Counted from the first letter of the stretch, positions 7,649 to 39,570 are shown. The stretch: DNA of 64,000 nt from Atopobium sp. (GCA_018363825.1 JAGZNE010000001.1:6620-70619), one strand, 5' to 3'. The notes: generated by a model not told the origin, from the sequence alone. Numbers and translations: made by a program.

Positions 7649-7670
7649 CCTTGCTCTAGGAAGGACCACG

Positions 7671-8441
7671 ATGGACGTAAAAGAAGCTATGGACCAGCGC
7701 ATATCTCTGCGCGCGTACGACCAAAAGCCTATTGAGCAAGAGAAACTTTCTCAACTCCAGGAAGCCATTGACGTCGCAAATGCCCAGATGGCAGAGGCAG
7801 CGCCTGATCACGCCGCAATCCTTACCATCGAGGGCCCTCACCTTGAGGATGGCACTTCCGTTCACATGAAGAACAGGTCTATTGTCGGTCCCATTTACCA
7901 CTACGTAGCAGGTTATTGTGAAGACGCAATTGCCCGTGAACTCATCGGCTACTATGGCGAGAAGATCGTTCTTCTCGCCACCCAGCTGGGCATTGGTTCA
8001 TGCTGGATTGCCGAGACCATGGACTGGAAGACCCTGGCTCGCGACGAGTACAACGGCCTTAAGCTGGGCATTATTATTTCTATCGGATACGCTCCGGAGA
8101 AGATTCCGCTCAAGCAGGAGGGCATTCGTACCGCAATTCGTCTGCGCACCAAGAAGCCTGCGCAGATTATGACGGCAAACGGTACTCCAACTGAGCCGAA
8201 GCAGATGCCCGAGTGGTTCAACCGCGGCATTGATGCGGTTTTGGCATGTCCAACTGCTATCAACAAGCTTCCCGTTGTATTTGACCTGACAGATGGCGTA
8301 GTAAGCGCGTCCATGCCTAACCAGCGCCACCTTGTCCAAGACTACGACCTGGGCATCTCCAAGCTGCACTTTGAGCTTGCCGCCGACCTCAAGGGTACGT
8401 GGGAGCTTGGACAGCCTGGTCGCTTTATCGTTTCTGAGTAG
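7671..8441 (+). CDS. Nitroreductase family protein
   Basis: Nitroreductase-fold N-terminus (RISLRAYDQKPI); RBS aggaagga precedes ATG 7671. The longer ORF from 7632 would overlap the mgtA 3' end. Confidence 0.65.
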   Translation: MDVKEAMDQRISLRAYDQKPIEQEKLSQLQEAIDVANAQMAEAAPDHAAILTIEGPHLEDGTSVHMKNRSIVGPIYHYVAGYCEDAIARELIGYYGEKIVLLATQLGIGSCWIAETMDWKTLARDEYNGLKLGIIISIGYAPEKIPLKQEGIRTAIRLRTKKPAQIMTANGTPTEPKQMPEWFNRGIDAVLACPTAINKLPVVFDLTDGVVSASMPNQRHLVQDYDLGISKLHFELAADLKGTWELGQPGRFIVSE

Positions 8442-21238: not shown

Positions 21239-22684
<1,446 letters not shown>

Positions 22685-23032
22685 TTAGCGCTCCTCCAAC
22701 TTCTTAATCCTGTCATCAAAGGACTTAAAAACTTGAACGAGCTGTTTAGCAGTAATGATTTCAGAATAAATAACCATAAGCGTGTCCTGGGCATGTGAGA
22801 ACAGAAGACTGTACTCCTGCTTTTCTCCCTGAAAGACACCTTGGATATGATCAGTCTGAACATGGTGAGCTTCAAGAATCTTTGCATCTGCGGCAGCAAT
22901 TTTTTCTTCTGCAAGCGCAATATCGCCAGCAGCAACAGCCTCATAAGCAAGCTTGCATTCATTGCGAGCCTCGCCAGCAGCAATAAGGATAGTCATGGCA
23001 TCCTGGGTAGTCTTATCAATTTCTTCTTCCAT
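22685..23032 (-). CDS. PTS lactose/cellobiose family EIIA component
   Basis: ~115-aa all-helical EIIA(Lac) protein with the conserved active-site His region (HHVQTDHIQ). Confidence 0.8.
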   Translation of the reverse strand: MEEEIDKTTQDAMTILIAAGEARNECKLAYEAVAAGDIALAEEKIAAADAKILEAHHVQTDHIQGVFQGEKQEYSLLFSHAQDTLMVIYSEIITAKQLVQVFKSFDDRIKKLEER

Positions 23033-23118
23033 AAGAAATTCTCCTCTAGACTCTAAACAGCGCATGAGATTACCTAAGACTACAAGTTGATATGTGGTCT
23101 TAGGCGCAGGTTATAGAT

Positions 23119-24435
23119 TTAGAACGACCAATCGTCATCTGAATCGGACTCAGTTTCTGCGGTCTCAGCATCAATAAGCTGCTTATCGTATGTTTTAAAG
23201 AATGGCATCCAAATAAGACCAGACACAACAAAAATGATAAGCATCAGAACAATACTGCCTATTGTTCCACAGGTAAGGAATGTGGCGATTGGGAATGGGC
23301 AATACCACATGTTAAAGAGCATCGAAGGAATAGCACCTAGTGGGATCACCTTAGTAAAGACGTAAGCAACAAGTGGTAAAACAATGCCCTGAAGCCACAT
23401 TGGAATCATCATGAGTGGATTCCACGCAACCACACCAAATACACAAGGCTCATTAATGTTAAAAATTGCAGGTACGAGGCAAGCACGACCAAGTGCTTTT
23501 AGCTGATTTGATTTAGCAGAGAATGCCATCAGAAGGACAAGAGATAACGTGCAGCCAATGCCACCAATCCAAAGATATCCAGAGTACACAAATGCATCGG
23601 TAAAGACTGCAAGATTTGATGCTGTTGCACTACCAGCGGCTGCTAGAACACCATTTGCCTCGGCGTTTGCAAGAAGGATTGGGGTAAATACTGGTGTTAA
23701 AACCCAGGAAGAAACGCCCATAGAATACAGGAAACAGAAAAGGAACATTGCAATTACAAGACCAACAGGTGAGTTAACAATATTCTGAAGAGGCATAAAG
23801 CAGCTAACAACCAGCTGATACAGGTTAAGGTTCAAAAACTTAGGATCGGTAAGAATCCAACCAAAAACTGTTACGATGCCAATTGGCAGCATTGAGTTAA
23901 ACCAGTCTTTTACAAAATCAGGAATTACAGAGTCTTCCTTAAAAAATGAGAAGTCTGCAAACTTATTTAGAACTGCTGCAGATATAAGACCAGCAACAAT
24001 TGCCAAAAACATTCCGCCAGCACCAAAGCCGCCAATATTAGAAATACGGAACCACGTAGATTCTCCTGCTGCAATCATGGCTGCTTGATCGGCCACAAAC
24101 TGTGGATTTAAAGAAATCAAAAACAAAATAACACCAGCAATACCCGCATTAACAGCCGAGCGCTTGTGTTCCTTAAGTATCAACAGATTGTAAGGAATCA
24201 AAAATGCAACAATCAGACCGACAATACCAAAGGTCCAACCGTAAGGTGTCCAGAAGTTTGGCCACCACTCAAAATAATTCATTGGAATTGTAAGCAAACT
24301 AAATATAGAACCTAAGAAGATAAGAGGAAGTGCCTGCAATACAGAATTCTTAATTGTAAGAATCCAAGGGTTCTGAACAATTCTGTTCATTTTTGGCGAG
24401 AAGCTCGTCTGAAGCCAGTCAATGAGCTTATTCAC
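23119..24435 (-). CDS. PTS lactose/cellobiose family EIIC permease
   Basis: 438-aa polytopic EIIC(Lac/Cel) with an acidic C-terminal tail. Confidence 0.85.
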   Translation of the reverse strand: MNKLIDWLQTSFSPKMNRIVQNPWILTIKNSVLQALPLIFLGSIFSLLTIPMNYFEWWPNFWTPYGWTFGIVGLIVAFLIPYNLLILKEHKRSAVNAGIAGVILFLISLNPQFVADQAAMIAAGESTWFRISNIGGFGAGGMFLAIVAGLISAAVLNKFADFSFFKEDSVIPDFVKDWFNSMLPIGIVTVFGWILTDPKFLNLNLYQLVVSCFMPLQNIVNSPVGLVIAMFLFCFLYSMGVSSWVLTPVFTPILLANAEANGVLAAAGSATASNLAVFTDAFVYSGYLWIGGIGCTLSLVLLMAFSAKSNQLKALGRACLVPAIFNINEPCVFGVVAWNPLMMIPMWLQGIVLPLVAYVFTKVIPLGAIPSMLFNMWYCPFPIATFLTCGTIGSIVLMLIIFVVSGLIWMPFFKTYDKQLIDAETAETESDSDDDWSF

Positions 24436-24517
24436 AGTTGTAGCCTCCTTTAGGGCATATTACTAACAAATCTTTTATGACAAATCTGAGTGTCATATGA
24501 TTTAATTCATCGTCAGA

Positions 24518-24847
24518 TTACTGAGCATTTGCTTCACGAATTGTTTTAATAAGGTGCTTGAGAGCTTTCTCGCCATTTAGGGTTGAATAATATGCGGGAT
24601 CCATAAGAATCACCTGAACGGGTTTATCAGCATATTTTTCTTTAAGCTCATCAGCAAGGTACTTAAGATGGGGACCAATCATCAAGGCATCGATTGAGTC
24701 AATATAGCTCTCAACCTCGGCCTCACTTCTTGCAGTGATGGAAATATCAAGATTGTGTTCTGCGGCAGCTTTCTTCATTTTTACCGCCATAAAACCACTA
24801 CTTGCTCCAGAACCACAAACTAAAAGAACCTCAAGGTGTTTAGACAT
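24518..24847 (-). CDS. PTS lactose/cellobiose family EIIB component
   Basis: 109 aa; N-terminal LVCGSGASSG phospho-Cys loop. Confidence 0.85.
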   Translation of the reverse strand: MSKHLEVLLVCGSGASSGFMAVKMKKAAAEHNLDISITARSEAEVESYIDSIDALMIGPHLKYLADELKEKYADKPVQVILMDPAYYSTLNGEKALKHLIKTIREANAQ

Positions 24848-27498: not shown

Positions 27499-28422
27499 TT
27501 AAGACAAAGTCTGATCACGCACAAATGCAAGTAAGCGTATAAGCACAACAATACAAAGCCCTGCTGCAAGTACCGTTTCAACAGTGGCTATTCCGTCAAG
27601 CCATTGCAGAGGCTGACCAAGTCCAGCCAAGTATGCCGACGTCTGAGTGCGCGCAACGACACAAATTACAAATGGAAAAGTGAACGCGGCATGACTGGGA
27701 AAGAACGGTTTTGTAAGGCACCTGATGCACCACACAAAAGAAACTACATAAATAATTGAAGCGATTGCCAGCATAACCAAAAGAAACGGTACGGACTTTG
27801 GCGTAATAGATTGAATATATCCTGCAACACAAAGACTTGTTGGAGCTGCATAAATACAAGCGAGCGACTCAGCAGAATCAGACACAGGTCCATATTTAAC
27901 GTACCGAATGCTCACAACTATAAAAAGCACCACAAAGCAGATAAATCCAAACCAAAATGCAACCGTGCCAACACTTGTTTCAAAGTGAAACGCCGGCGCT
28001 GTAACACTTGCAACAACAATGCCTACATACACAATGAACCAGCTGGCGTGCACATTCTCCCAATTAAATTTTGTAATATATCGAGAAGTAAAGAGAGCTA
28101 TGCACAGTATGTGCAACGCAATTCCTACAAACCAAAATAATTGCGCTGCATCACCAATATCAGCCTTCGAATACACCGAAATCAGCATAACTGCCATCGG
28201 ATATGTTGCGGCAACTGAAAGTCCAATCGGATCCGAGAGCTCTCGCAATACAACTTTTGTCGACACCATAAATTTAAGGGTATAGAGAGCTAAAAGAGCA
28301 ATAGAGAGTATGCCGCAGGCGAGATAAAGACCTTCAAAAGAAGCCTTAAAAAGATTTCCAAGTGCCGCAAAACCTAATGCAACACCGCAAATAGCAACAG
28401 GAACTTTTTGGACATAGTTCAT
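27499..28422 (-). CDS. TDT (tellurite-resistance/dicarboxylate transporter, TehA/Mae1-like) family transporter
   Basis: 307-aa 10-TM protein with a TDT-family pattern. Confidence 0.7.
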   Translation of the reverse strand: MNYVQKVPVAICGVALGFAALGNLFKASFEGLYLACGILSIALLALYTLKFMVSTKVVLRELSDPIGLSVAATYPMAVMLISVYSKADIGDAAQLFWFVGIALHILCIALFTSRYITKFNWENVHASWFIVYVGIVVASVTAPAFHFETSVGTVAFWFGFICFVVLFIVVSIRYVKYGPVSDSAESLACIYAAPTSLCVAGYIQSITPKSVPFLLVMLAIASIIYVVSFVWCIRCLTKPFFPSHAAFTFPFVICVVARTQTSAYLAGLGQPLQWLDGIATVETVLAAGLCIVVLIRLLAFVRDQTLS

Positions 28423-28576: not shown

Positions 28577-29209
28577 CTAGTCAAAATCGTCAATTTCCAC
28601 CACTTTTGTCCCAGCTAAATAATCATGAATTGCAAGGTGGTTTTTTGTAATTACAACCATTACCGCTGAAAACATAGTTAATAGGTACATTACTATGAAA
28701 ACATAGCTTTCAATATAAAATCCAGACACCAGCGTAAGTGCCTGAATAATATATCTCGTCGTAATAGTCGAAACACCTTCAATCAGAAGGAGACCAGGTA
28801 TTGCCCTAATAACTAGCTGCTTTAGTTCTACTTTATTTCCTAAACTAGTCTCACATTGCAATTTAAATAACTTTTTGCCTGGTGTTTGGCCTGGCCAAAT
28901 TTTCCAAGGTATTACTATGTAATAAACAATAAAAATCATCAAGGACAGTATGCAGCAAATGTAAGCAAACATATTTGAATATCCAAGCGCACTAAAGACA
29001 TACAAATCACTGAACATATCAGAGCTATGAGTTACTAAAGCAAAAATTAGAACCTCTGGAAAACCAATAAGTAGACCTGAAAGCACCCAGTCGACAGCAT
29101 ATGCATAAAATCTACGCATGGGAAATTTCCACATCATAGTTAACTTACGTTTTGACTTTAAGCTCAAAGATCTTGTTATATTTTTATGAGCCATTTTATT
29201 CCCCATCAA
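28577..29209 (-). CDS. RDD family membrane protein
   Basis: RDD-like hydrophobic core (AYAVDWVLSGLLIGFP...). It is the last gene of the PTS/peptidase operon. Confidence 0.55.
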   Translation of the reverse strand: MMGNKMAHKNITRSLSLKSKRKLTMMWKFPMRRFYAYAVDWVLSGLLIGFPEVLIFALVTHSSDMFSDLYVFSALGYSNMFAYICCILSLMIFIVYYIVIPWKIWPGQTPGKKLFKLQCETSLGNKVELKQLVIRAIPGLLLIEGVSTITTRYIIQALTLVSGFYIESYVFIVMYLLTMFSAVMVVITKNHLAIHDYLAGTKVVEIDDFD

Positions 29210-29215
29210 AATCCC

Positions 29216-30421
29216 CTATAAACTTAGACTATCAATGCCTTTTGCAAAACGGTGTAATCCATCGTTTAACTTTTCTCTAGGACATCCAACACACATACGT
29301 AAATATCCTGCTCCTGAATTACCGTATGTCTCCCCAGGCATAATCCCAACATTTCCAATATTAACCAATGCGTCTTGTAATCGTTTTGAAGATACTCCCA
29401 AAGAACTCACATCAATCCAGGCTAAATAAGTTGCTTCTGGAATTTCAAATTTTATATTCGGATAACGACCTGAAAGGAAGCTCTTTATTACCTGCATATT
29501 GCCAAGTATGTATGAACACAGATCATCAACATAAACTTCGCATTCGTTATACGCAACCATCGTTGCATATAGTCCCAAAGTACTACATGAATTAAGAAAA
29601 TCAACATGCCTAGTTATATTTAAAAATGCTTCACGAACTTTACTAGACGGAACGACCACATACGACCCAATAAGACCAGGTGTATTAAAAGTTTTTGTGG
29701 GGGATGTTGCAACGACCACTCTTTCATATTCTTTTAACTTAGAGATTAAGCTGATATTACTTCTGCCACACAAACTAATATCAGCATGAATTTCATCTGA
29801 AATGATCCAGAGATTATGGCTTCGACAAATATCGATAATCCTATTTAATTCTTCCTCTGTCCACATACGTCCAGTAGGATTATGTGGAGAACACAGTAGC
29901 ATTGCCTTACAAGAAGCAGCCAACTTATCAAGTTGCTCAAAATCAATCTCAAAAGTTTTATGTAAACAATCCACTGAAGCGTTCTCTAAATTCGGTAAAA
30001 GAATACTTCTTACGAGTGTTCGGTCATTCCCTTCTACTACTCCAGGAAAAGAATCATACATAGGGTCGAAACATAAGACTCCATCGCCTGAATCTGTTAA
30101 TAATCGAATTAACAGAGAAACTGAATACATCACAGAAGGACTGTATAAAATCCAATCCTCATCTACACTGGCGTTATATCTTCTCTCAAACCATGATGCA
30201 ATTGAGCCCTTAAAATCATGATGATTCCATCGGGTATAGCCAAACTGCCCTCGAGCTGCAACTTCAGTAACTACATTTAAAACTTCTTCAGGAGGCAAAA
30301 AATCAGTATCAGAAATTGAAAAAGGCAAAATACCGGATTTGCCAAATCTATCCTGAATAAAATCCCACTGAGTACAATATGTTCCATAGCGATTTTGAAT
30401 TTTATCGAAATCGTATCCCAT
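29216..30421 (-). CDS. MalY/PatB-type PLP-dependent C-S lyase (aminotransferase class I/II)
   Basis: 401 aa; N-terminus typical of the MalY/PatB family (DKIQNRYGTYCTQWD), SPTKTFN PLP-lysine region. Confidence 0.85.
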   Translation of the reverse strand: MGYDFDKIQNRYGTYCTQWDFIQDRFGKSGILPFSISDTDFLPPEEVLNVVTEVAARGQFGYTRWNHHDFKGSIASWFERRYNASVDEDWILYSPSVMYSVSLLIRLLTDSGDGVLCFDPMYDSFPGVVEGNDRTLVRSILLPNLENASVDCLHKTFEIDFEQLDKLAASCKAMLLCSPHNPTGRMWTEEELNRIIDICRSHNLWIISDEIHADISLCGRSNISLISKLKEYERVVVATSPTKTFNTPGLIGSYVVVPSSKVREAFLNITRHVDFLNSCSTLGLYATMVAYNECEVYVDDLCSYILGNMQVIKSFLSGRYPNIKFEIPEATYLAWIDVSSLGVSSKRLQDALVNIGNVGIMPGETYGNSGAGYLRMCVGCPREKLNDGLHRFAKGIDSLSL

Positions 30422-31504
30422 TTAAACTCCTAAGATTATTGGATCAGTTGTTGTTTTATTAAGAGATACGCCAACTCCATTAATTACAGCAACGTCATTT
30501 TCAATTCGAACTCCACCAACACCAGGAATATATATACCTGGCTCACATGACATAACCATGCCCTCTTTAAGAATAAAATGTTTTCCAGGCCTCAATAAAG
30601 GCAGTTCGGTTGAATTATCTATTCCAATTCCATGACCAAGACCATGTCCAAAATACTCTCCGTACCCAGCCCTCAAAATGACAGAACGTGCACATCTATC
30701 AACTTCTTCAGAATCAACTCCAGCTTTAATAGACGAAATACCAGCGTTCTGGGCGTCTTGAACAATGCTATAGATCTCTAGTATCTTTGTGTTAGGCTCC
30801 CCTAAAAAACAAATCCTGGTCATATCTGACTGGTAATTATCAATCTGAATTCCAAAATCAATCATCACATGCTCACCGCGTTTTAAAGCGCGCGATGTAG
30901 GCCTACAATGAGGATATGCAGTACGCTCACCAATGCCACAAATAGTGTCGAAAGACATTTTTTGTGCGCCTCTACAAATAGATTTATATTGAACTAAGGC
31001 ACTAATTTCATACTCTGTCATTCCTTCTTTAATTTGAGAAGATACTTCCTTAAAGATCTCATCTGTTATATTTACTGCTTTTCTGATTTTTTTAATCTCT
31101 TCCGATGTTTTAATCGCACGCAGTATCGTCAGCTCTTTATCAAGAAGAACAACACTTTTAAATTGCTCTGATAATTTCAAATACGTACTTGCTAAAGTTG
31201 ATTCAGATTCAACTCCCAGGCATTTCCAGTTGTACTTTTCCGATAACTCGTAAAGCTTCACATAAATAGCCTCTTCAGACTGGCTTGCTAACAATTCAAT
31301 CGTTAAATCATGTTCCTTCTCTTTTGCTTCTGCAAAATATCTTTGATCAACTAAGAGGCCTTGATATTTACGACTTACGATGATTGAGCAGCCGCTACCA
31401 TTTAGTACACCGAGCCAGTTCTTTATTGTCTTGCTTTTAAGAAGAAGGACATCAACGGCCATATCATTCAAAAGATCTTGAAGTAAATTGATATTCCCAT
31501 TCAT
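30422..31504 (-). CDS. M24 family Xaa-Pro aminopeptidase/dipeptidase
   Basis: Creatinase-like N-terminal domain plus a pita-bread C-domain with HGLGHGIG and metal ligands. The stop abuts the C-S lyase start. Confidence 0.85.
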   Translation of the reverse strand: MNGNINLLQDLLNDMAVDVLLLKSKTIKNWLGVLNGSGCSIIVSRKYQGLLVDQRYFAEAKEKEHDLTIELLASQSEEAIYVKLYELSEKYNWKCLGVESESTLASTYLKLSEQFKSVVLLDKELTILRAIKTSEEIKKIRKAVNITDEIFKEVSSQIKEGMTEYEISALVQYKSICRGAQKMSFDTICGIGERTAYPHCRPTSRALKRGEHVMIDFGIQIDNYQSDMTRICFLGEPNTKILEIYSIVQDAQNAGISSIKAGVDSEEVDRCARSVILRAGYGEYFGHGLGHGIGIDNSTELPLLRPGKHFILKEGMVMSCEPGIYIPGVGGVRIENDVAVINGVGVSLNKTTTDPIILGV

Positions 31505-31588
31505 ATATACTCCTCTTCTTAAACTGTTCTTAACTGGAAAAGATGAGACTAACTCTTCAATAGAGTTAGTCTCATCAAAGCACGCTAA

Positions 31589-32917
31589 CTAAATTCCAAG
31601 ATCCATTTCTTCAAGAAGCGCCTCATCCTCTTCAGACAAAATGCTGCTTGAATTCTCTTGTTCTTTCTCAATAAATCTCTGCTCATAAGCTTTGAAAAAC
31701 GGATACCAAAGAGCAATAGACAGTATCATCTGAACTGCGTTAACTACAATCGATCTCCAGTCAAAGTTTGTCAAGAATCCTTCAAAGAAGACTCCGACAT
31801 AAGGTGGTGTAAAGAACGATTTACCCATTAAGCCAAGCCATTGAGCCCAGCCACCGAGCGATCCAATAATTCCTCCACCAATGACATATGGAATAAAGTA
31901 GAACGGATTGAGAACAATTGGAGCGCCAAACAAAATTGGCTCGTTGATTCCAAACAAAGCTGGAATAAATGCTACTCGTCCGATTTTCTTAAGCGCATCA
32001 GACTTAGAGAGCATGCACCAAAGAACAAGACCAAAGGTAACTCCAGTACCGGTGAAATTACCAAATGCAGACTCAGGTCCAGGACAGAAGAAGTGCGTAA
32101 GTGGAAGTCCTGCTTGATAATTTGCAATATTTTCCGCCAGGAATTGAGTAGAAATTGGACTTGTAATTGGGCTGAGAACAGACGGATGGATACCAAAGAA
32201 GAACAGCAAACAATGGAGCATCTTTAAGAAAGTGTATGCCAATGGATTGTCCATCGAACCAACTAAAGGTGCAAATAGATTTGTAAAAATCAGAGGAGGC
32301 ATTACTCCAAAAACGTTTGTGCACACCAAACGTATTGCTAAAAATACACCAATAATGATGATAGAAATTGGAATCATTTCAAAGGAACGAGAAACAAAGT
32401 CTGGCACAGACTCTGGCATTTTAATGGTGAAGTTGCGCTTTTTGCACCAGCGGAACAATTCGACTGCAACAATAGCTCCAAACATAGATGCAAATAAGCC
32501 CTTAGCGCCTAAGTACTTTGTTACCAAAGTACCGTCTTTTGAAAAATCGACAGCAAGCATCAAAAATGCAATTAACGCCATACTCATGCAGCCAGGTGCA
32601 TCGAGTTCATGCGACTTCGATAGGTGGTACCCAATAAGAACCGAAGCATAAAGCGCCATCATTCCCATTCCAACAGTGTTTGCAAGTTCAATTGCAGAGG
32701 CATTCGCAACAATCCACTGAGAAAGAGGATTTTCCTCACCAATCATGTTTGGAATCGCACCAGGAATCAAACAGAAACTACCAATGATTAGTAGAGGCGT
32801 TAAGCCAACCATAGCTTTTTTAATTGCGCTTAAATGAATTTCCTTATCCATCCAATTTGCTACAGGAGTTAAATAGCGGTCAATTACCGCTGTAAATCCA
32901 TGAGTATTCTCATTCAT
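31589..32917 (-). CDS. PTS lactose/cellobiose family EIIC permease
   Basis: 442-aa EIIC(Lac/Cel) topology with an acidic C-terminus. Confidence 0.85.
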   Translation of the reverse strand: MNENTHGFTAVIDRYLTPVANWMDKEIHLSAIKKAMVGLTPLLIIGSFCLIPGAIPNMIGEENPLSQWIVANASAIELANTVGMGMMALYASVLIGYHLSKSHELDAPGCMSMALIAFLMLAVDFSKDGTLVTKYLGAKGLFASMFGAIVAVELFRWCKKRNFTIKMPESVPDFVSRSFEMIPISIIIIGVFLAIRLVCTNVFGVMPPLIFTNLFAPLVGSMDNPLAYTFLKMLHCLLFFFGIHPSVLSPITSPISTQFLAENIANYQAGLPLTHFFCPGPESAFGNFTGTGVTFGLVLWCMLSKSDALKKIGRVAFIPALFGINEPILFGAPIVLNPFYFIPYVIGGGIIGSLGGWAQWLGLMGKSFFTPPYVGVFFEGFLTNFDWRSIVVNAVQMILSIALWYPFFKAYEQRFIEKEQENSSSILSEEDEALLEEMDLGI

Positions 32918-32922
32918 AATAA

Positions 32923-33264
32923 TTACCCCCTTTCAGAGGCAAGTTCGATTTTCTTTTGTTCAACTAACACTTTTTTGAGTACTGATACGCCGTCCATCTG
33001 ACCATACGTAGCTGTATCAACAACAATTACTGGAATGTTTTTGTCACCCAATGCGTTCTTTACACTCTCAAATTTGTGAGCAATTTGAGGTCCAAGAACA
33101 ACTGCATCGGCATCACTAACCTCCGAGTCTAAAATATCAACTGGAATCGCGATAAACTGGAAGTCAGATTCATTAAGCTTTGGACTTGCTTTTACTCCAG
33201 CTTTCATGGCATCCATAAGCATCGTAGTTGATAAACCACCGGCACAGCAGAGCACAATCTTCAT
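32923..33264 (-). CDS. PTS lactose/cellobiose family EIIB
   Basis: LCCAGGLSTT phospho-Cys loop; 113 aa. Confidence 0.85.
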   Translation of the reverse strand: MKIVLCCAGGLSTTMLMDAMKAGVKASPKLNESDFQFIAIPVDILDSEVSDADAVVLGPQIAHKFESVKNALGDKNIPVIVVDTATYGQMDGVSVLKKVLVEQKKIELASERG

Positions 33265-33309
33265 TTCTTCCTCCCTTTCTTTTTTGGCATTCTTAACGAA
33301 TACACACTG

Positions 33310-33633
33310 TTATTTGCGGTTCTGAATCTCAAAAACATCAACAAGTTCTTCAATCAGATCTCTAGCGAGTTGAGCAGCCATATAGTGATCTTGTGCATGA
33401 GCCATTAAAAGCGTCATTGCAGGACGATCAGCTTCTGGAGTATTGAGCTCGGCTGATATAAGTTCTGTTTGAGCCTTGTGGGCAGCCAAGTCAATCTGTT
33501 TTGCTTGCTCAAGCAGGCTATGAGCTCCTTGGTAATCCCCCTCCTTTACTTTTCTCAATGCTTCAATTGCCTTTGATCTACTCTCCCCTGCTGAAGAAAT
33601 CATCGTGAGGATTTTGATTTCGCTTTCGTTCAT
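33310..33633 (-). CDS. PTS lactose/cellobiose family EIIA
   Basis: 107 aa; helical EIIA(Lac) with the conserved His (AHAQDH). Confidence 0.85.
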   Translation of the reverse strand: MNESEIKILTMISSAGESRSKAIEALRKVKEGDYQGAHSLLEQAKQIDLAAHKAQTELISAELNTPEADRPAMTLLMAHAQDHYMAAQLARDLIEELVDVFEIQNRK

Positions 33634-33666
33634 ACTTAAGCACTTCCCTCTTTCTTCAAATTCCCA

Positions 33667-34695
33667 TTAATTTGTAAGATCTCTTAATACTTCCTCTGTA
33701 AAATTGCTGCAAATTAGCTGAATGACGTGAGCAACAGTTTTTAAATCTTTTAACTGCACAAAAGAGCAACTTCCATGACAATACCTAAGGGGAATACCAA
33801 GTACCATTGCCAATCTTCCTGCGTTAACTAAATGACCCGTTCCAGCATCAGTACCACCACCAGCAAAAATATCTTTCTGGTAAGGAATATTTGCATCTTC
33901 TAAAAGTTTTTGTATGTAAGACAAAAGACGGCGTTTCGGAGCTAATGTTTTATCGTAATAAACCAACATTGGACCAGCGCCTAAGATTCGATGGTTTTTA
34001 AACCCGCTACCAAGTCCAGAATAATTTGCTGTATCAATTGCAACTAATAAATCTGGTTGAACGAGCTCTGTTACAGTTTTTCCTCCTCGTGCCCCTACCT
34101 CTTCACTACTTGTAAAAGCAAAGTAAATGTCACAAGGGTAAGAATCAAAAAGTTCCTTAACTGCCTGTATGAGAACAAAACAACCGGCTCGGTCATCCAT
34201 GGCTTTTCCAGAAACTATTCCGTTTTCATGAACCAATGCATCTGTCGCAAAGTAAACAAAATCACCTTCACTCACGCCTAATACTCGAACATCGTTCTCA
34301 CTAGAGCATCCAATATCCACGTAACTTTCCAAGACCTGATTAGATTTATCCCTAATTGAATTAAGTACGCCACGAACTTTTCCTTGAGAGGTATGAATGC
34401 GAACAAGCTGCATATCCTTGCTCGTATTTACAACATTTCCGATTGGCATTACATATAACAAGCCATCATCAGAAATAGATCTGACAATAAAGCCAACTTC
34501 ATCCATATGAGCCATAAACATAATTTTTGGAGATCCGCTTGGACCGGGCTTATGAAAAATAAGGCTACCAAGTCCGTCTCTAAAAGTTTCACTTAAATAC
34601 TTAGCGCACTCGACTTGTATCAATTCACGGACTTCGTCCTCATTACCGGCCAACGCATCAGAGTTACTTAGCTTTACAAGAAGATCAACATCCAT
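33667..34695 (-). CDS. M42 family aminopeptidase (FrvX/CelM-like)
   Basis: 342 aa; M42 metal-binding blocks (MAHMDEVGF, SSEEVG). Confidence 0.85.
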   Translation of the reverse strand: MDVDLLVKLSNSDALAGNEDEVRELIQVECAKYLSETFRDGLGSLIFHKPGPSGSPKIMFMAHMDEVGFIVRSISDDGLLYVMPIGNVVNTSKDMQLVRIHTSQGKVRGVLNSIRDKSNQVLESYVDIGCSSENDVRVLGVSEGDFVYFATDALVHENGIVSGKAMDDRAGCFVLIQAVKELFDSYPCDIYFAFTSSEEVGARGGKTVTELVQPDLLVAIDTANYSGLGSGFKNHRILGAGPMLVYYDKTLAPKRRLLSYIQKLLEDANIPYQKDIFAGGGTDAGTGHLVNAGRLAMVLGIPLRYCHGSCSFVQLKDLKTVAHVIQLICSNFTEEVLRDLTN

Positions 34696-36580
34696 CTTTA
34701 CTGACCTCCATCTTTTTTATCTGATTTATAAATTCTTCAGCACTTTTACAAGACTCAAGCAGTGAAATTTCTTCTTGGTTATTCATTAGTGAAAATAAAG
34801 AAGTACTAATAGCTTTATAAGCCTCAATGGATTGTTTGGTTAGACATATAAGAAAAATAACTCTAACCTCTTTTTCCTTTTTATTCCTGTTAATACGAAC
34901 CGCTATTGCATCCCGTATTCCGTGAGGCTCTACAGGATGGGGTGCGCAAATACCATTCAAAAAAATCGTGTTAGAAAACTTCTCCCGCACTTTGACAGAA
35001 TTGACGAACTCTTCATCTGCATATCCAAGGCGTACACAATCAATACACGCTTCATAGACTATATCTTGATACGTATTTTGATCAGAAACAGCAAAAAGCT
35101 CGGGTTCTATCAGAGAAGATAAAGTGTATTTTGTTCCACAATCTTGGTTTACATCATAATTACTATGTCGAACAGCATTACTAATAGCAGAAAGATCAGA
35201 GGAACTTAAAATCTCATTTATATAGATTGTTGGAGCACAAGGCTTTTCTAGCAATGGGACCATGGATATTATTAAATCTGGATTCAATTCTACAAGCACT
35301 CTTTGGTCCAAATAAGACACTGTATCAATTTGGGCATTTGGGAATATACCGCTAAGCTGCATTTTCACAAGTGTGGCAGATCCTCCGCCAGTTGCACAAA
35401 CAACAACGATATGAGCAATGCTAAAAAGACGATTCTGACGTGTTCTTTCCTCATGAGCAATAAAATGCATTGCAATCAAAAATACTTCGTCTTGTGTTGG
35501 TTCTACACCAAAATTACTATAAATTTTTTCACACAACTGAACAGCAAAATCCATGCTGAGCGAATTTCCTAATTCACTTTTTTCAGCAAATGAAATAGTA
35601 ACTGTTTTCCCAGCAAGTAATCTTTTCACAAGAAGTGCTATATGTGCTTCTAACATTTCTACGAACGTCTTATCCTCTAAAAAAGACGTTTGATACTCCT
35701 CATCAATACCTGTGAGAAATGAAATAATAACCGGGCTTACTTCTGAGATAGCTGTAGTAGGAGCATCTTCTAGACTCGGAAGCTGTCCCAACGCTTTTGC
35801 AATGCATAAAACATCTACCTTGGTAAGCTTTAGACCAAGTTTCTTATAGATCTCCTCAGAAATTAATTCTGCTAAATCAAGGAATTTAATTGGAGTAAGA
35901 CTTAACTCTCGCTCCTCGTTTGTATCTCTCACAATATTAGCTGCGCAAATAGTTACAAAGGCACAAAGAGCGCAAAAATCTTCATATCTAAGATTTCTTC
36001 CAATCTTAGAAAGGCATGAGAGAAGAATGGTCGATATTTTTTCTTCTTTATCAATAGATTCTCTAATTGCGGAAACTGTTAAAGGCGATCCTGCCAAAAG
36101 AGATCTAGCTAAAAAGAAACGAATGTCATCCGGTTTTCCGACTGCACGTGTGCCATGATGGCGAGTACGTTGAATGTCGATTCCAAAATTTGAGCCTATT
36201 CGGGATGCTTCTTGAAGAGCCATATTCACTACCGGAACACTCAAATCAAAATTGACTGCAAGATCTTCTGCACTTACAAATCCCCCCGAAAGGACCAAAG
36301 CTTGAAGAATAGTTTTTGATCGTTCAGATGGCTCTATAAACTCTGAGTGAGATAAAAAATCTAAAAAGGAAGTAAATAAATCTGAATCTTTTACTAATAG
36401 GCGTATTCCTTTGCCTCGTTCAGACACAATCTGAAAACCATGATTATGTTGGGTAGAACGTAAATCTGATAAGTCTGATTGAACAGTGCGCTCTGAGACA
36501 TTAAATTCATGAGCGAGCTGTGAGACAGAAATAGCCTCTGATGTCCTACTAAGCTGATTTAATAACCTGCTAGTACGCAC
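34685..36580 (-). CDS. PRD-containing transcriptional regulator (BglG/LicR/MtlR type: HTH, PRDs, EIIB-like and EIIA-like domains)
   Basis: 631 aa. N-terminal HTH, two PRD-like regions, and a C-terminal segment with a PTS EIIB(Gat)-like Cys region (VVCATGGGSATL). Confidence 0.8.
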   Translation of the reverse strand: MRTSRLLNQLSRTSEAISVSQLAHEFNVSERTVQSDLSDLRSTQHNHGFQIVSERGKGIRLLVKDSDLFTSFLDFLSHSEFIEPSERSKTILQALVLSGGFVSAEDLAVNFDLSVPVVNMALQEASRIGSNFGIDIQRTRHHGTRAVGKPDDIRFFLARSLLAGSPLTVSAIRESIDKEEKISTILLSCLSKIGRNLRYEDFCALCAFVTICAANIVRDTNEERELSLTPIKFLDLAELISEEIYKKLGLKLTKVDVLCIAKALGQLPSLEDAPTTAISEVSPVIISFLTGIDEEYQTSFLEDKTFVEMLEAHIALLVKRLLAGKTVTISFAEKSELGNSLSMDFAVQLCEKIYSNFGVEPTQDEVFLIAMHFIAHEERTRQNRLFSIAHIVVVCATGGGSATLVKMQLSGIFPNAQIDTVSYLDQRVLVELNPDLIISMVPLLEKPCAPTIYINEILSSSDLSAISNAVRHSNYDVNQDCGTKYTLSSLIEPELFAVSDQNTYQDIVYEACIDCVRLGYADEEFVNSVKVREKFSNTIFLNGICAPHPVEPHGIRDAIAVRINRNKKEKEVRVIFLICLTKQSIEAYKAISTSLFSLMNNQEEISLLESCKSAEEFINQIKKMEVSKDGC

Positions 36581-36682
36581 CTTTCCGCCTCCCCCAACAT
36601 TAATTGTCTTAAGCGTAAAGATTTTTATAAGGCTAGTAAAACATCAAAGTTGCACTTTATTGTGCAGAAAAGTTCATTATTC

Positions 36683-36723
36683 GGTTAAAAGAACGACTCT
36701 AGCGGTAAACGCTAGAGTCGTTC
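36683..36723 (-). terminator. Rho-independent terminator downstream of the MmeI-family gene (minus strand)
   Basis: Perfect 14-bp stem gaacgactctagcg / cgctagagtcgttc, with a T-tract on the minus strand. Confidence 0.6.
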
Positions 36724-36771
36724 CAAAATATCATTTATCTAATTAAACACTAAGTTTTGGCGGAAATCTAA

Positions 36772-39570
36772 TTACTTCTCTTTCACCTTCTCAGCATATA
36801 ATTTAAAAAGATGCGCAACTATCTTTTCTTCATCACCATTAAAGTCAACTCCATATGCAGCTTCAACTGCAGCGTCGAGCGCCTTGTGAGCGGCCAGTAG
36901 GTCCGCTGGCATCAGTTGCGGGTCATAAAGGATTGCGAGCGAATCACCGGGATGGTTCTCGCGGACATCCAGCACGTCTTGCGCACAGGCTTCGATAGTC
37001 TCACGCTGCTCGGACGTGGGGTCGGGCCAGATGAAGTTGTTGTAGACCATATCTTTTGAATAACGGTAATCGCTCTTCATGCGACCAGCGGTTTCCGAAA
37101 CCCATAGGTTGTGCATGCGACTCATCAATACCGCAAAAGTGTAGATGGTAGCATTGTCAACAAAGAAGCACGCATTCGTATAAACGCACTTGGCTGGCAT
37201 GAAGCACATCGGGATATAACGACGTCTGCTGGATGAGACAACAGGTATGACTACGCTTTTTCCAGTAGGAACTTGCGATTGGAAAAACTTGGTCGGGGTG
37301 TCCTTCAATACATTCGTCGTTGGCTTATCGCTGTTCGCCCGATAGTCACGTACGCGATGAACCCTCTCGAGAACAAAAGGCATTTGCTCAATCTTTTCGA
37401 TTGAGCACTTCTCCAGATACAAGCAGTATTTTGGTTCAGCTCCATTCAACAAATCACGAGCGTTCCAATATTGATAAACATAAGGCTCCGCATTAGGCTC
37501 GTTCGCCAAAAACATATCCCTTTCTTCCTGCGACGGTAAAACAAAACCTCCTCCGTCAATGAGCTGAGCGCCTTTCTTTATCTCCTGAACATCACACAAA
37601 GGCTCACGAGCTTTCTCGACAACAACACTTGTATTTGACTGCAAATATTGATTTATGGATGCACATTCATCCAAAGAGCCGTCCTCTCGCACCAATCGCT
37701 TTACCGCTTGCTCAGTATAAGAGAACCCAACAATGACCACATGAACATGCGCCTTGTCTTGTGCCTCACTTGTCCAATTGAAGGTCTGCTGACCGAAATT
37801 GATATGCATCTTTGCCTTATCAAGCAAATACCCCCAAATCAAAGAGGCTTGCAGACCCTGGCAAATCGAATTAGTAGAAACGAAAGCAGCTTCAATTGAC
37901 TGATTATCCCTCATGTAATTCGACGATTTGAAATACCAGCAGCTTACATAATCAAGCTGCTTATTCTTCTTAAACGGGATGACAGCATCCATGTCAGACT
38001 TGTTCGATGCAGTTAAAAACTTCATTCCTACAAATGGCGGATTACCCATAATGTAGTTGCATTCAGCTGCTGGTAATACACTATTCCAGTCAATGCGTAG
38101 AGCATTGCCTTCAACAATATGAGCCTTTTCACTTAAGGGGAAATCATCTCCACCAGCATCATAGAACATTGATGTTTCACCATTTGCTTTAAGGCGGCTA
38201 ATCCAAAGGGCGGTCTCAGCAACAGTTACAGCAAAATCATTAATCTCAATGCCATAAAACTGACTCAAAGAAACACGCTTTCCTGTCTCTTCTTCATCTC
38301 CAAGGCTAAGGCCAGTTTGTCCTTTTCTAAGCTCATTAAGAACCGTATCTTCCAACTTACGAAGGCATGTATAGGTCTCAGTAAGGAAATTACCTGAACC
38401 GCAAGCAGGGTCAAAGAAAGTAAGTGAACAAATCTTCTCGTGAAAACGCCTAAGAGCATTTTCGCGTTTACGAGGAGTTGTTCCTTCTTCAGCGCAAATA
38501 GACTTAAGTTCTTCTTTAAGGTCATCTAAAAAGAGTGGATCAATTACCTTATGAATATTTTCTGGCGAGGTATAGTGCATGCCGCCAGAACGTCTAGTCT
38601 CTGGATTCAGAGTTGACTCAAAAATACCACCAAAGATAGTCGGGCTAATCTGTGACCAATCAATATGGGAAGATACTTCATCCAACAAGAAGCTCTTTGT
38701 TTCATCTGTAAAATTAGGAACTTCAGATTCATCTCTGAAAAGCCCACCATTTACATACGGGAATGCTTTTACTTCAAGATCATACGGATCTCGATCAGAC
38801 AGATTGGTATCCAGCGCACGGAATAAATTCTTAAGTGCTGTTCTAATTCTGCTTGCTGGGACATCTTTCAGATAGTTATAAAAAGCATCTTTTCCAAAAA
38901 GACCCGCATCTTCGCAATAAAGGCAAAATACCAAGCGCACACAAAGTACGTTTAGTGCATGCATCGACTCTTCTGAATCAGGATTCATGTATCCTTCACG
39001 CAGTTTGTCATAAAGCTTTCCAATGAGCTCACCAGCTTTAATGGATACGGTCTTTTCTTTTTCAAGACGACTGTTAGTAGGGTCATTAATAAAAGCAAGG
39101 TACTCTGGATGATTTGCAAGTTCATCAAGAGTGAACTCAAATGCGTTATTAGGAAGTTGTGACCTTCCGTATGCATCGCGGTCATACACTCTAAAGGTAG
39201 AGAAATTGCACGTAATGACGAATCGAGGTTGCTCTAACCTGGGAAGCTCGTCAACATAATCAAGCGCTTGAGTTAAAGGTGTCTTTTGTTTACCTTGACG
39301 GAGCTCTTCTTTATCTAAATCAATTCCAAGAGCCTTTTGCTCAATTAAGACACCAGCATCGGGAATCCATACATCTATAAATCCGCCAGATGAGACATGG
39401 AATTCAAAGAGAACGTCATCTACTTTTGAATAGCCAATAGTGCGTAAGAGCTGTAACCAAAATTGCTGAGTATCTCCCTTTTCATACCCTCTACCTTGCC
39501 AACGGGAGACAAATTCTAGAAGCTCTTTCTTATCACAGGGCATGCTCTTACTCACTTTCAAGACTGTCAA
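36772..39570 (-). CDS. MmeI-family Type IIL/IIG restriction-modification enzyme (PD-ExK nuclease + N6-adenine methyltransferase + TRD in one chain)
   Basis: 932 aa. N-terminal PD-x6-EQK nuclease motif (IPDAGVLIEQK), MTase motif I FFDPACGSGNFL and motif IV IMGNPPFVG. Close block-wise resemblance to MmeI (919 aa) as recalled. Confidence 0.88.
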   Translation of the reverse strand: MTVLKVSKSMPCDKKELLEFVSRWQGRGYEKGDTQQFWLQLLRTIGYSKVDDVLFEFHVSSGGFIDVWIPDAGVLIEQKALGIDLDKEELRQGKQKTPLTQALDYVDELPRLEQPRFVITCNFSTFRVYDRDAYGRSQLPNNAFEFTLDELANHPEYLAFINDPTNSRLEKEKTVSIKAGELIGKLYDKLREGYMNPDSEESMHALNVLCVRLVFCLYCEDAGLFGKDAFYNYLKDVPASRIRTALKNLFRALDTNLSDRDPYDLEVKAFPYVNGGLFRDESEVPNFTDETKSFLLDEVSSHIDWSQISPTIFGGIFESTLNPETRRSGGMHYTSPENIHKVIDPLFLDDLKEELKSICAEEGTTPRKRENALRRFHEKICSLTFFDPACGSGNFLTETYTCLRKLEDTVLNELRKGQTGLSLGDEEETGKRVSLSQFYGIEINDFAVTVAETALWISRLKANGETSMFYDAGGDDFPLSEKAHIVEGNALRIDWNSVLPAAECNYIMGNPPFVGMKFLTASNKSDMDAVIPFKKNKQLDYVSCWYFKSSNYMRDNQSIEAAFVSTNSICQGLQASLIWGYLLDKAKMHINFGQQTFNWTSEAQDKAHVHVVIVGFSYTEQAVKRLVREDGSLDECASINQYLQSNTSVVVEKAREPLCDVQEIKKGAQLIDGGGFVLPSQEERDMFLANEPNAEPYVYQYWNARDLLNGAEPKYCLYLEKCSIEKIEQMPFVLERVHRVRDYRANSDKPTTNVLKDTPTKFFQSQVPTGKSVVIPVVSSSRRRYIPMCFMPAKCVYTNACFFVDNATIYTFAVLMSRMHNLWVSETAGRMKSDYRYSKDMVYNNFIWPDPTSEQRETIEACAQDVLDVRENHPGDSLAILYDPQLMPADLLAAHKALDAAVEAAYGVDFNGDEEKIVAHLFKLYAEKVKEK

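Follow-up and report, generated by a model that had tools for sequence, protein, structure and literature searches.

Operons of the phosphotransferase system (PTS) usually combine a transporter with a phospho-glycosidase. What, then, is the substrate of a PTS module that is found in gut, oral and food-fermentation bacteria and that pairs the transporter with two exopeptidases and a beta-lyase instead? The question is raised by an eight-gene cluster of Atopobium sp., located at 28577-36580 in a stretch of 64,000 nucleotides (GCA_018363825.1, JAGZNE010000001.1:6620-70619; the whole stretch is called the window here). The reading preferred here, with a rough probability of 0.45, is that the module directs PTS catabolism of a compound in which a sugar open to phosphorylation would be joined to an amino acid or peptide whose N-terminus is free, and that beta-elimination would be the last step. 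The substrate, the order of the steps and the leaving group in this scheme are deduced.

Eight consecutive, co-directional open reading frames (ORFs) on the minus strand fill the region, and its outer limits in the ORF listing agree exactly with those reported in the initial annotation. The predicted gene products, which the profile matches also confirm, are in order a PRD regulator, an M42 aminopeptidase, the EIIA, EIIB and EIIC components of a PTS, an M24 peptidase, a MalY/PatB-family lyase dependent on pyridoxal phosphate (PLP) and an RDD-family membrane protein (Table 1). The regulator and M42 genes overlap by 11 bp; the following gaps are 33, 45, 5, 84, 0 and 6 bp, the lyase start codon abutting the M24 stop codon.

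Related loci were anchored on EIIC (22 from genomes and 80 from metagenomes), and their gene content was determined by tblastn with the window proteins. A PatB-family lyase gene accompanies those for M42, IIA, IIB, IIC and M24 in each of the 60 loci whose flanking sequence suffices, and 54 of the 60 have all eight families. The hosts belong to the Coriobacteriia, Erysipelotrichales and Lactobacillales, which represent two phyla; the 7-8-gene synteny envisaged in the initial annotation is thus strongly conserved. Recurrence of this gene set in about 100 independent loci puts the arrangement far outside what chance would produce. Identical or near-identical copies are present in metagenome-assembled genomes (MAGs) named Lancefieldella parvula or Atopobium sp. 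The order regulator-M42-IIA-IIB-IIC-M24-lyase-RDD is also found in Olsenella, Olegusella, Collinsella, Massilimicrobiota and Coprobacillus, and the order regulator-M42-IIA-IIB-IIC-RDD-M24-lyase is found in Lacticaseibacillus spp. and Latilactobacillus fuchuensis. M24 lies directly behind EIIC in Bavariicoccus, Lactococcus and Tetragenococcus; Bavariicoccus has no RDD gene, and the Tetragenococcus contig is too short for an RDD call. Most related loci have an RDD gene, and most have a homologous regulator.

When the flanking ORFs were clustered (16 genome loci, then about 100 loci), the only recurring families were the eight of the module. Other recurring flanks are species-specific (>80% identity), and the flanking genes differ between genera. 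The same clustering was searched for a conserved extra gene encoding a glycosidase, kinase, deglycase, NagA or NagB; none recurs. The GC content of the cluster is 37-39%; it lies in an island (~20000-41000) of 37-44%, and the rest of the window has 48-56%. This low GC content suggests acquisition from a low-GC donor. A distant variant with the order regulator-IIA-IIB-IIC-M24-M42-lyase, without RDD, is found on megaplasmids of Enterococcus raffinosus and E. gilvus; its EIIC is 44% identical to that of the window. A tblastn search of PLSDB matched this variant and copies of malXY, and found no close plasmid copy of the window cluster. Unrelated flanks, the low-GC island, the strain-specific occurrence in Latilactobacillus sakei (described below) and the Enterococcus megaplasmid variant point to horizontal mobility, and the cluster is best regarded as a self-contained, horizontally transferred module. 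Decayed copies, in which M42, EIIC or the lyase is fragmented, are found in Lacticaseibacillus thailandensis (locus L025, 7100-14300) and in loci L026 (9989-11304), L063, L101 and L103; these represent either loss in some lineages or assembly frameshifts.

The transporter belongs to the Lac family (TC 4.A.3), as its components match PF02255 (92.7 bits), PF02302 (48.1 bits) and PF02378 (146.7 bits). EIIC passes the broad Lac-family model TIGR00410 (248 bits; cutoff 236) and is below the cutoff of every specificity equivalog: TIGR00359 (248 vs 434), TIGR00394 (189 vs 614), NF007157 (171 vs 503) and NF007634 (118 vs 760). It is 60-75% identical across phyla and is distant from the solved ChbC structure (129 bits). 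By these scores EIIC falls outside the ordinary cellobiose, lactose and chitobiose equivalogs and is assigned to a distinct Lac-family subfamily. This agrees with the initial annotation, for which an ordinary cellobiose transporter would have spoken against a new system. H244 (in a GIH motif) and E326 (in an NE motif) do not vary among 13 sequences; in the alignment they coincide with the GIH and NE motifs of Bacillus cereus ChbC, where H250 and E334 are presumably the His and Glu of the sugar-phosphorylation site (3QNQ). The match makes a sugar-phosphorylating function likely. A profile search found no gene for a GH1 or GH4 phospho-beta-glycosidase in the window cluster. An ordinary Lac-PTS operon (IIB, IIC, IIA) followed by a GH1 phospho-beta-glycosidase gene is located about 7 kb away (~21240-24847, minus strand), and it has a counterpart in locus L001 (18071-21329). 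The EIIC of this neighbouring operon and that of the cluster are about 27% identical.

The simplest use of such a transporter would be uptake of an ordinary beta-glycoside whose hydrolase is encoded elsewhere. The peptidases, lyase and RDD protein would then be merely co-regulated, for nitrogen or sulfur supply, or the MalY-like protein would be a regulator that works through protein contact, in the manner of E. coli MalY and MalT. The best equivalog score of EIIC is indeed that of the cellobiose-type model TIGR00359, its His and Glu motifs match those of sugar-phosphorylating EIIC proteins, and a GH1 enzyme is encoded near the cluster in the same genome. However, that score is, like all the others, under its equivalog cutoff, and co-regulation does not fit a gene set which is invariant in all 60 loci, across phyla and amid unrelated flanks. 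An ordinary glycoside is considered unlikely; transcription of the cluster and the lyase itself, treated next, also bear on this alternative.

A PRD-type regulator heads the compact cluster, as stated in the initial annotation. HTH_11, Mga, one PRD and EIIA_2 domains were detected in the window protein with Pfam; a second PRD and an EIIB-like domain were not detected. An Enterococcus homologue has two PRD stretches and a PTS_IIB domain. Activators of LicR/MtlR type have N-terminal HTH domains, two PRDs and both an EIIB-like and an EIIA-like domain; the window regulator, a PRD-containing protein, is tentatively placed among them. In locus L019 (a Lactococcus sp. MAG), an RpiR-type regulator (HTH_6 + SIS; 7386-8117) is encoded upstream of M42, apparently in place of the PRD regulator.

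The 84-bp gap between EIIC and M24 has a perfect 15-bp stem-loop followed by TTTT, 13 nt past the EIIC stop codon (31576-31542; folding free energy -26.9 kcal/mol, z = -3.2). A stable hairpin is found at the equivalent position in nearly all related loci, often with a U-tract, despite differing sequences. The cluster is compact and co-directional, but its description as one tightly packed operon has to be qualified by this conserved, terminator-like element. Placed as it is between the PTS genes and the M24, lyase and RDD genes, the hairpin might indicate that the transporter is a separate, ordinary one. However, the spacer past the hairpin holds nothing but a ribosome-binding site, and the whole EIIC-M24 gap is 48 nt in loci L011 and L014, too short for a promoter, so a separate promoter behind the hairpin is unlikely. 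The hairpin is probably not a separator; it would act as an intra-operon attenuator or as a 3'-end or mRNA stabiliser which sets the transporter-to-enzyme ratio.

Both peptidases resemble E. coli enzymes that are encoded next to a PTS. The M42 protein matches PF05343 (253 bits), and its best NCBIfam model is the YpdE equivalog NF007421 (390.8 bits; cutoff 412); E. coli YpdE itself scores 681. Because its score is under the cutoff, it is YpdE-like and not a certified YpdE equivalog. It had been called FrvX-like in the initial annotation, a label that has to be replaced: NF007367/PRK09864, which we take to be the FrvX model, gives 148 bits vs 391 for the YpdE model. The E. coli proteins served to check the identities of the NCBIfam YpdE and YpdF models. 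Over its full length M42 shares 39% identity with E. coli YpdE, and its best Protein Data Bank (PDB) match is Shigella SF2450. The metal-binding and catalytic residues H63, D65, D167, E198, E199, D221 and H307 are invariant in an alignment that includes E. coli YpdE. Names in the PDB also label such proteins as cellulase, which is an old mis-annotation of M42 proteins; this function was rejected, as the active site has the make-up of a YpdE-type aminopeptidase.

The M24 protein matches PF00557 (213 bits) and PF01321, and its best model is the YpdF equivalog NF007310 (230 bits, under the cutoff of 393). It is 38% identical to E. coli YpdF over its full length; prolidases, aminopeptidase P and YpdF are its PDB neighbours. 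The metal ligands D216, D227, H291, E321 and E335 are invariant in an alignment that includes YpdF. As Zheng and co-workers are said to have found in 2005, YpdE is a broad aminopeptidase which is blocked by proline, and YpdF is an Xaa-Pro and Met-Xaa aminopeptidase. By analogy, the two enzymes together would digest a peptide from a free N-terminus.

The lyase scores 331.3 bits on TIGR04350 (cutoff 340); the scores of E. coli MalY and of the L. fuchuensis cluster lyase are 377.5 and 304.6. E. coli MalY is its best PDB match (37% identity, 312 bits). In an alignment of the cluster lyases with MalY, K243 (the PLP lysine), Y122, N181, D209 and R375 are invariant; K243 and Y122 correspond to K233 and Y121 of MalY. 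A counterpart, Ls-MalY of L. sakei LT-13, has been purified; it has L-cysteine beta-lyase activity (95 nmol/min/mg, Km 11.5 mM) and also cleaves L-cystine and L-cystathionine (PMC5845896). It racemises many amino acids, alanine best, with activities in the nmol/min/mg range and a Km for alanine of 150-169 mM (PMC5845896). These weak kinetics on free amino acids suggest that the natural substrate is outside the tested set.

Genes which have been added beside the lyase are informative about its product. In three Lacticaseibacillus species a RidA gene is located 3' of the lyase gene and is followed by a gene for a lactate dehydrogenase (LDH)-like or PanE-like dehydrogenase. RidA hydrolyses 2-aminoacrylate produced by PLP beta-eliminases. 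In two Lactococcus-like loci, L019 among them, an alanine dehydrogenase (AlaDH) gene lies between M24 and the lyase. These additions suggest that the lyase acts as a beta-eliminase with 2-aminoacrylate or pyruvate as its product. Olsenella uli and Collinsella tanakaei have, in place of the usual lyase gene, one that is transcribed divergently and encodes another PatB-family lyase (348 bits; cutoff 340); replacement within the same family argues that lyase function is required or selected for. A supposed second lyase in eight loci was discarded; it is an unrelated aminotransferase 3.5-4 kb away.

The same observations count against a regulatory MalY protein in an ordinary glycoside operon. E. 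coli MalY does regulate independently of catalysis (PMC11203769), but MalT is absent from L. sakei (PMC5845896). Neither that role nor mere co-regulation explains why the catalytic residues are invariant, why RidA has been appended beside the lyase, or why the lyase has been exchanged for one of the same family in two genera.

Salvage of D-amino-acid material, for example cell-wall glycopeptides, would give the lyase another role. The MalY-like enzyme would be mainly a broad racemase, converting D-alanine to L-alanine, and L-alanine would be converted to pyruvate. Lac-family transporters as a family take beta-linked N-acetylglucosamine (GlcNAc) disaccharides, and the alanine dehydrogenase gene inserted beside the lyase in two loci would suit this route. 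However, EIIC has its lowest score on the chitobiose model (118 bits; cutoff 760), the stems of muropeptides have a blocked N-terminus, and the module encodes no amidase, etherase or NagZ. The broad racemase activity of Ls-MalY, with alanine as the best substrate, is in favour, but its specific activities are just nmol/min/mg and its Km is 150-169 mM (PMC5845896). The adjacency of RidA favours beta-elimination over racemisation, and salvage by racemisation is considered very unlikely.

In another scheme, an aminoacyl- or peptidyl-sugar (of the Cys-GlcN type, for example) is imported. The peptidases would cut an amide or ester bond, housekeeping enzymes would take the sugar phosphate, and the lyase would do no more than break down the freed cysteine, cystine or cystathionine, with pyruvate, NH3 and H2S as products. 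Such a scheme needs no glycosidase. It fits the intact active sites of M42 and M24, which as a family property require a free alpha-amino group, and formation of pyruvate would agree with the presence of the RidA, LDH-like and AlaDH genes. Ls-MalY desulfhydrates free L-cysteine, L-cystine and L-cystathionine, but with a poor Km of 11.5 mM for L-cysteine (PMC5845896). The scheme also leaves unexplained the universal retention of two complementary exopeptidases, one of Xaa-Pro type. Nor are compounds of this type known as abundant in gut, oral or food habitats. The scheme is rated as rather unlikely.

The preferred reading, a conjugate whose sugar is phosphorylated and whose last amino acid undergoes beta-elimination, can be set out in three steps. 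The Lac-family EIIABC would import the conjugate and phosphorylate its sugar. The YpdE-like M42 enzyme and the YpdF-like M24 Xaa-Pro peptidase would then shorten the peptide from its N-terminus. Finally, the MalY-type PLP enzyme would catalyse alpha,beta-elimination on the residual beta-substituted alanine (an S- or O-linked cysteine or serine conjugate); 2-aminoacrylate would be formed and would give pyruvate and NH4+, and a (thio)sugar phosphate would be released. The leaving group could be an unrelated thiol, or it could be the sugar itself if the conjugate is an S- or O-glycoside. The PRD regulator would tie expression to the activity of the transporter, the hairpin behind EIIC would adjust the ratio of transporter to downstream enzymes, and the RDD protein would be an accessory membrane component. 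This last protein matches PF06271 (58.8 bits; cutoff 24.1), and R33, D40 and D196, the Arg, Asp and Asp typical of the family, are conserved without exception among 11 sequences. The scheme builds on gene content, conserved synteny, intact catalytic residues and the published in vitro beta-lyase activity of the L. sakei counterpart, which are established. The glycosylated amino acid, peptide or thio-conjugate that the initial annotation proposed as substrate is plausible and fits the RidA, AlaDH and LDH-like additions and the replacement of the lyase.

Several points weigh against this scheme. No Lac-family PTS for glycopeptides or glyco-amino acids is known; S-glycosyl-cysteine compounds are seldom met with in nature, and there is no known precedent for a PLP-dependent O-glycosyl-serine lyase. 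The E. coli counterparts, fry and malXY, are still cryptic after decades of work. Were the leaving group a 1-thio-sugar phosphate, the cluster encodes no enzyme to use it. The adjacency of AlaDH also fits a racemase or alanine route, and the conserved hairpin could permit partly independent expression of the enzyme genes. Wild-type Ls-MalY does not catalyse beta-elimination on L-serine (PMC5845896).

In a stronger form of the scheme, glycopeptides or glyco-amino acids would here have their first PTS pathway, and the MalY-type enzyme would replace the glycosidase: O-glycosyl-serine or S-glycosyl-cysteine would lose its (6-phospho)glycosyl group by beta-elimination, with sugar phosphate, pyruvate and NH4+ as products. 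This form is improbable on present evidence. Beta-elimination that frees the sugar phosphate would account for the dispensable glycosidase; if true, a MalY which replaces a glycosidase would explain MalY behind MalX and YpdE/YpdF inside the E. coli fry operon.

Table 1. Features of the PTS-peptidase-lyase cluster and its boundaries (positions in the window)
Feature	Position	Strand	Length	Basis
PRD regulator	34685-36580	-	631 aa	HTH_11 + Mga + PRD + PTS_EIIA_2 (Pfam/NCBIfam)
M42 aminopeptidase, YpdE-like	33667-34695	-	342 aa	Pfam/NCBIfam
PTS EIIA, lactose/cellobiose family	33310-33633	-	107 aa	Pfam/NCBIfam
PTS EIIB, lactose/cellobiose family	32923-33264	-	113 aa	Pfam/NCBIfam
PTS EIIC permease, Lac family	31589-32917	-	442 aa	Pfam/NCBIfam
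Terminator-like stem-loop 3' of EIIC	31542-31576	-		folding calculation
M24 Xaa-Pro-type peptidase, YpdF/PepQ-like	30422-31504	-	360 aa	Peptidase_M24 + Creatinase_N
MalY/PatB-family PLP C-S (beta) lyase	29216-30421	-	401 aa	Aminotran_1_2 / TIGR04350
RDD-family small membrane protein	28577-29209	-	209-210 aa	RDD profile
Putative leader and promoter region of the cluster	36581-36686	-		predicted function
Intrinsic terminator of the upstream MmeI-type gene	36687-36722	-		direct sequence reading

The upstream limit of the cluster is the terminator of an MmeI-type gene. This strong terminator reads GAACGACTCTAGCG-TTTAC-CGCTAGAGTCGTTC-TTTT (~36722-36687) and lies about 100 bp 5' of the regulator start. 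The regulator has a GTG start codon preceded by the ribosome-binding site GGGGGAGG. An inverted repeat, TGCACAATAAAGTGCA (TGCAC-AATAAA-GTGCA), is present at 36651-36666 (minus strand), ~70-85 bp upstream of this start codon, and could be an operator or an activator-binding site. A search with Rfam between 27000 and 37500 for a riboswitch or T-box clue to the substrate found no known RNA family at the E-value threshold. A match to a PyrR binding site (36686-36813, minus strand) was set aside; it is sub-threshold (36.6 bits vs a gathering cutoff of 54; E = 0.038), lies across the terminator hairpin of the MmeI gene and is probably a chance match. At the other end of the cluster, the gene caller favours an ATG at 29206 as the start of the RDD gene.

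The low-GC island (~20000-41000) contains the PTS-peptidase-lyase cluster, the MmeI gene and the second PTS operon. The MmeI gene (36772-39570, minus strand) encodes a type IIL restriction-modification protein with all five MmeI domains and is located directly upstream of the cluster. It is about 73% identical among Atopobium/Lancefieldella strains vs 92-100% for the neighbouring genes, which suggests a swap of specificity or allele. Downstream, a gene for a SLAC1/TehA-family anion-channel-like protein (27499-28422, minus strand) is found 154 bp from the RDD gene, with no obvious terminator in between. It was rejected as a member of the cluster, as the linkage is confined to Lancefieldella/Atopobium loci.

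A PTS kept together with two exopeptidases and a beta-lyase, and never with a glycosidase, implies PTS substrates of an undescribed kind, in which a sugar is joined to an amino acid or peptide, and possibly undescribed bond-breaking chemistry. Three gene sets of E. coli that have long been orphans, MalX-MalY, Fry-YpdE-YpdF and the M42 genes found in PTS operons, are also joined in one testable hypothesis. L. sakei strains with the cluster (LT-13) and without it (LK-145) are practical hosts for such work, and Lancefieldella parvula is culturable. Lancefieldella and Atopobium are associated with the formation of H2S and with oral malodour, so that clinical as well as food-flavour interest might attach to a substrate-specific lyase route for cysteine conjugates.

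The closest known system is the same cluster in L. sakei LT-13 (LACBS_00568-00576), which has been drawn as an 8-kb strain-specific insertion (Kato & Oikawa 2018, PMC5845896). Only MalY was assayed in that work, and the physiological role was stated to be under investigation (PMC5845896). As in the window, the L. sakei cluster encodes one or more PRD proteins, an aminopeptidase, Lac/Cel-type IIA, IIB and IIC, an RDD protein, a further aminopeptidase and MalY. Its gene order is that of L. fuchuensis and Lacticaseibacillus; RDD is directly after EIIC there, whereas it is last in the window. With L. fuchuensis as a stand-in for L. sakei, the window proteins are ~31-67% identical. The L. fuchuensis lyase has the Y123/K233 numbering and the 42% identity to E. 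coli MalY that have been published for Ls-MalY; this agreement, which stands in for a direct comparison with L. sakei sequence, supports placing the two clusters in the same family. A full-text literature search found the cluster shown in PMC5845896 alone and no paper that gives it a substrate. Papers later than 2018 bring nothing further on the cluster, and a 2024 review of beta-C-S lyases is silent on its PTS context (PMC11203769).

Parts of the combination are found in E. coli, where these enzyme families accompany PTS transporters of other families, a point in favour of the preferred reading. The K-12 operon fryA-ypdE-ypdF-fryC-fryB also encodes a PTS together with M42 and M24 aminopeptidases. 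However, its PTS is of fructose type, with a fused EI-HPr-EIIA (FryA) and an unrelated EIIC, and there is no C-S lyase, RDD protein or PRD regulator. In malI-malXY, a MalY-type PLP C-S lyase is encoded immediately behind a PTS permease, as in the window; unlike the window, MalX is a glucose-family EIICB, peptidases and RDD are lacking, and MalY also binds MalT, a protein that the hosts of the cluster lack. MalY-like lyases at least 38% identical to that of the window are linked to a glucose-type PTS (MalX) in Klebsiella, Photobacterium, Cetobacterium and Clostridioides difficile (PMC4026244 for the last); the PatB of Priestia (35% identical) is not linked to a PTS. The C. difficile 630 operon CD630_30270-30310 (antiterminator, malX, malY, a SIS 'phosphosugar isomerase' and EIIA) shows 14- to 25-fold repression, as a block, when a fliC mutant is examined in vivo (PMC4026244).

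Classical cel, chb and lic operons share with the window cluster separate Lac-family IIA, IIB and IIC proteins and a PRD-containing activator, but they carry a phospho-beta-glycosidase (GH1 or GH4). Routes for glyco-amino acids include alf2 of L. casei, which acts on fucosyl-GlcNAc-Asn, and the Frl/Gfr systems for Amadori products. In Staphylococcus hominis the Cys-Gly-3M3SH pathway is a peptide-conjugate route which ends in a PatB lyase (PMC7385124). These routes follow the same logic: a transporter, then one or more peptidases, then a last enzyme which acts on a single conjugated amino acid. However, S. hominis and alf2 use a peptide transporter or permease instead of a PTS, the PTS of Gfr is of the mannose family and not the Lac family, and the final enzymes of alf2 and Frl/Gfr (glycosylasparaginase and deglycase) are absent from the window cluster. 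None of them unites M42, M24 and MalY. The initial annotation regarded the combination as not known to be characterised; this is right for its function, which is unexplained, but a map exists in PMC5845896, M42 and M24 peptidases already meet a PTS in fry, and a PTS meets MalY in malXY. The combination is documented but unexplained; it is uncharacterised, not unnoticed.

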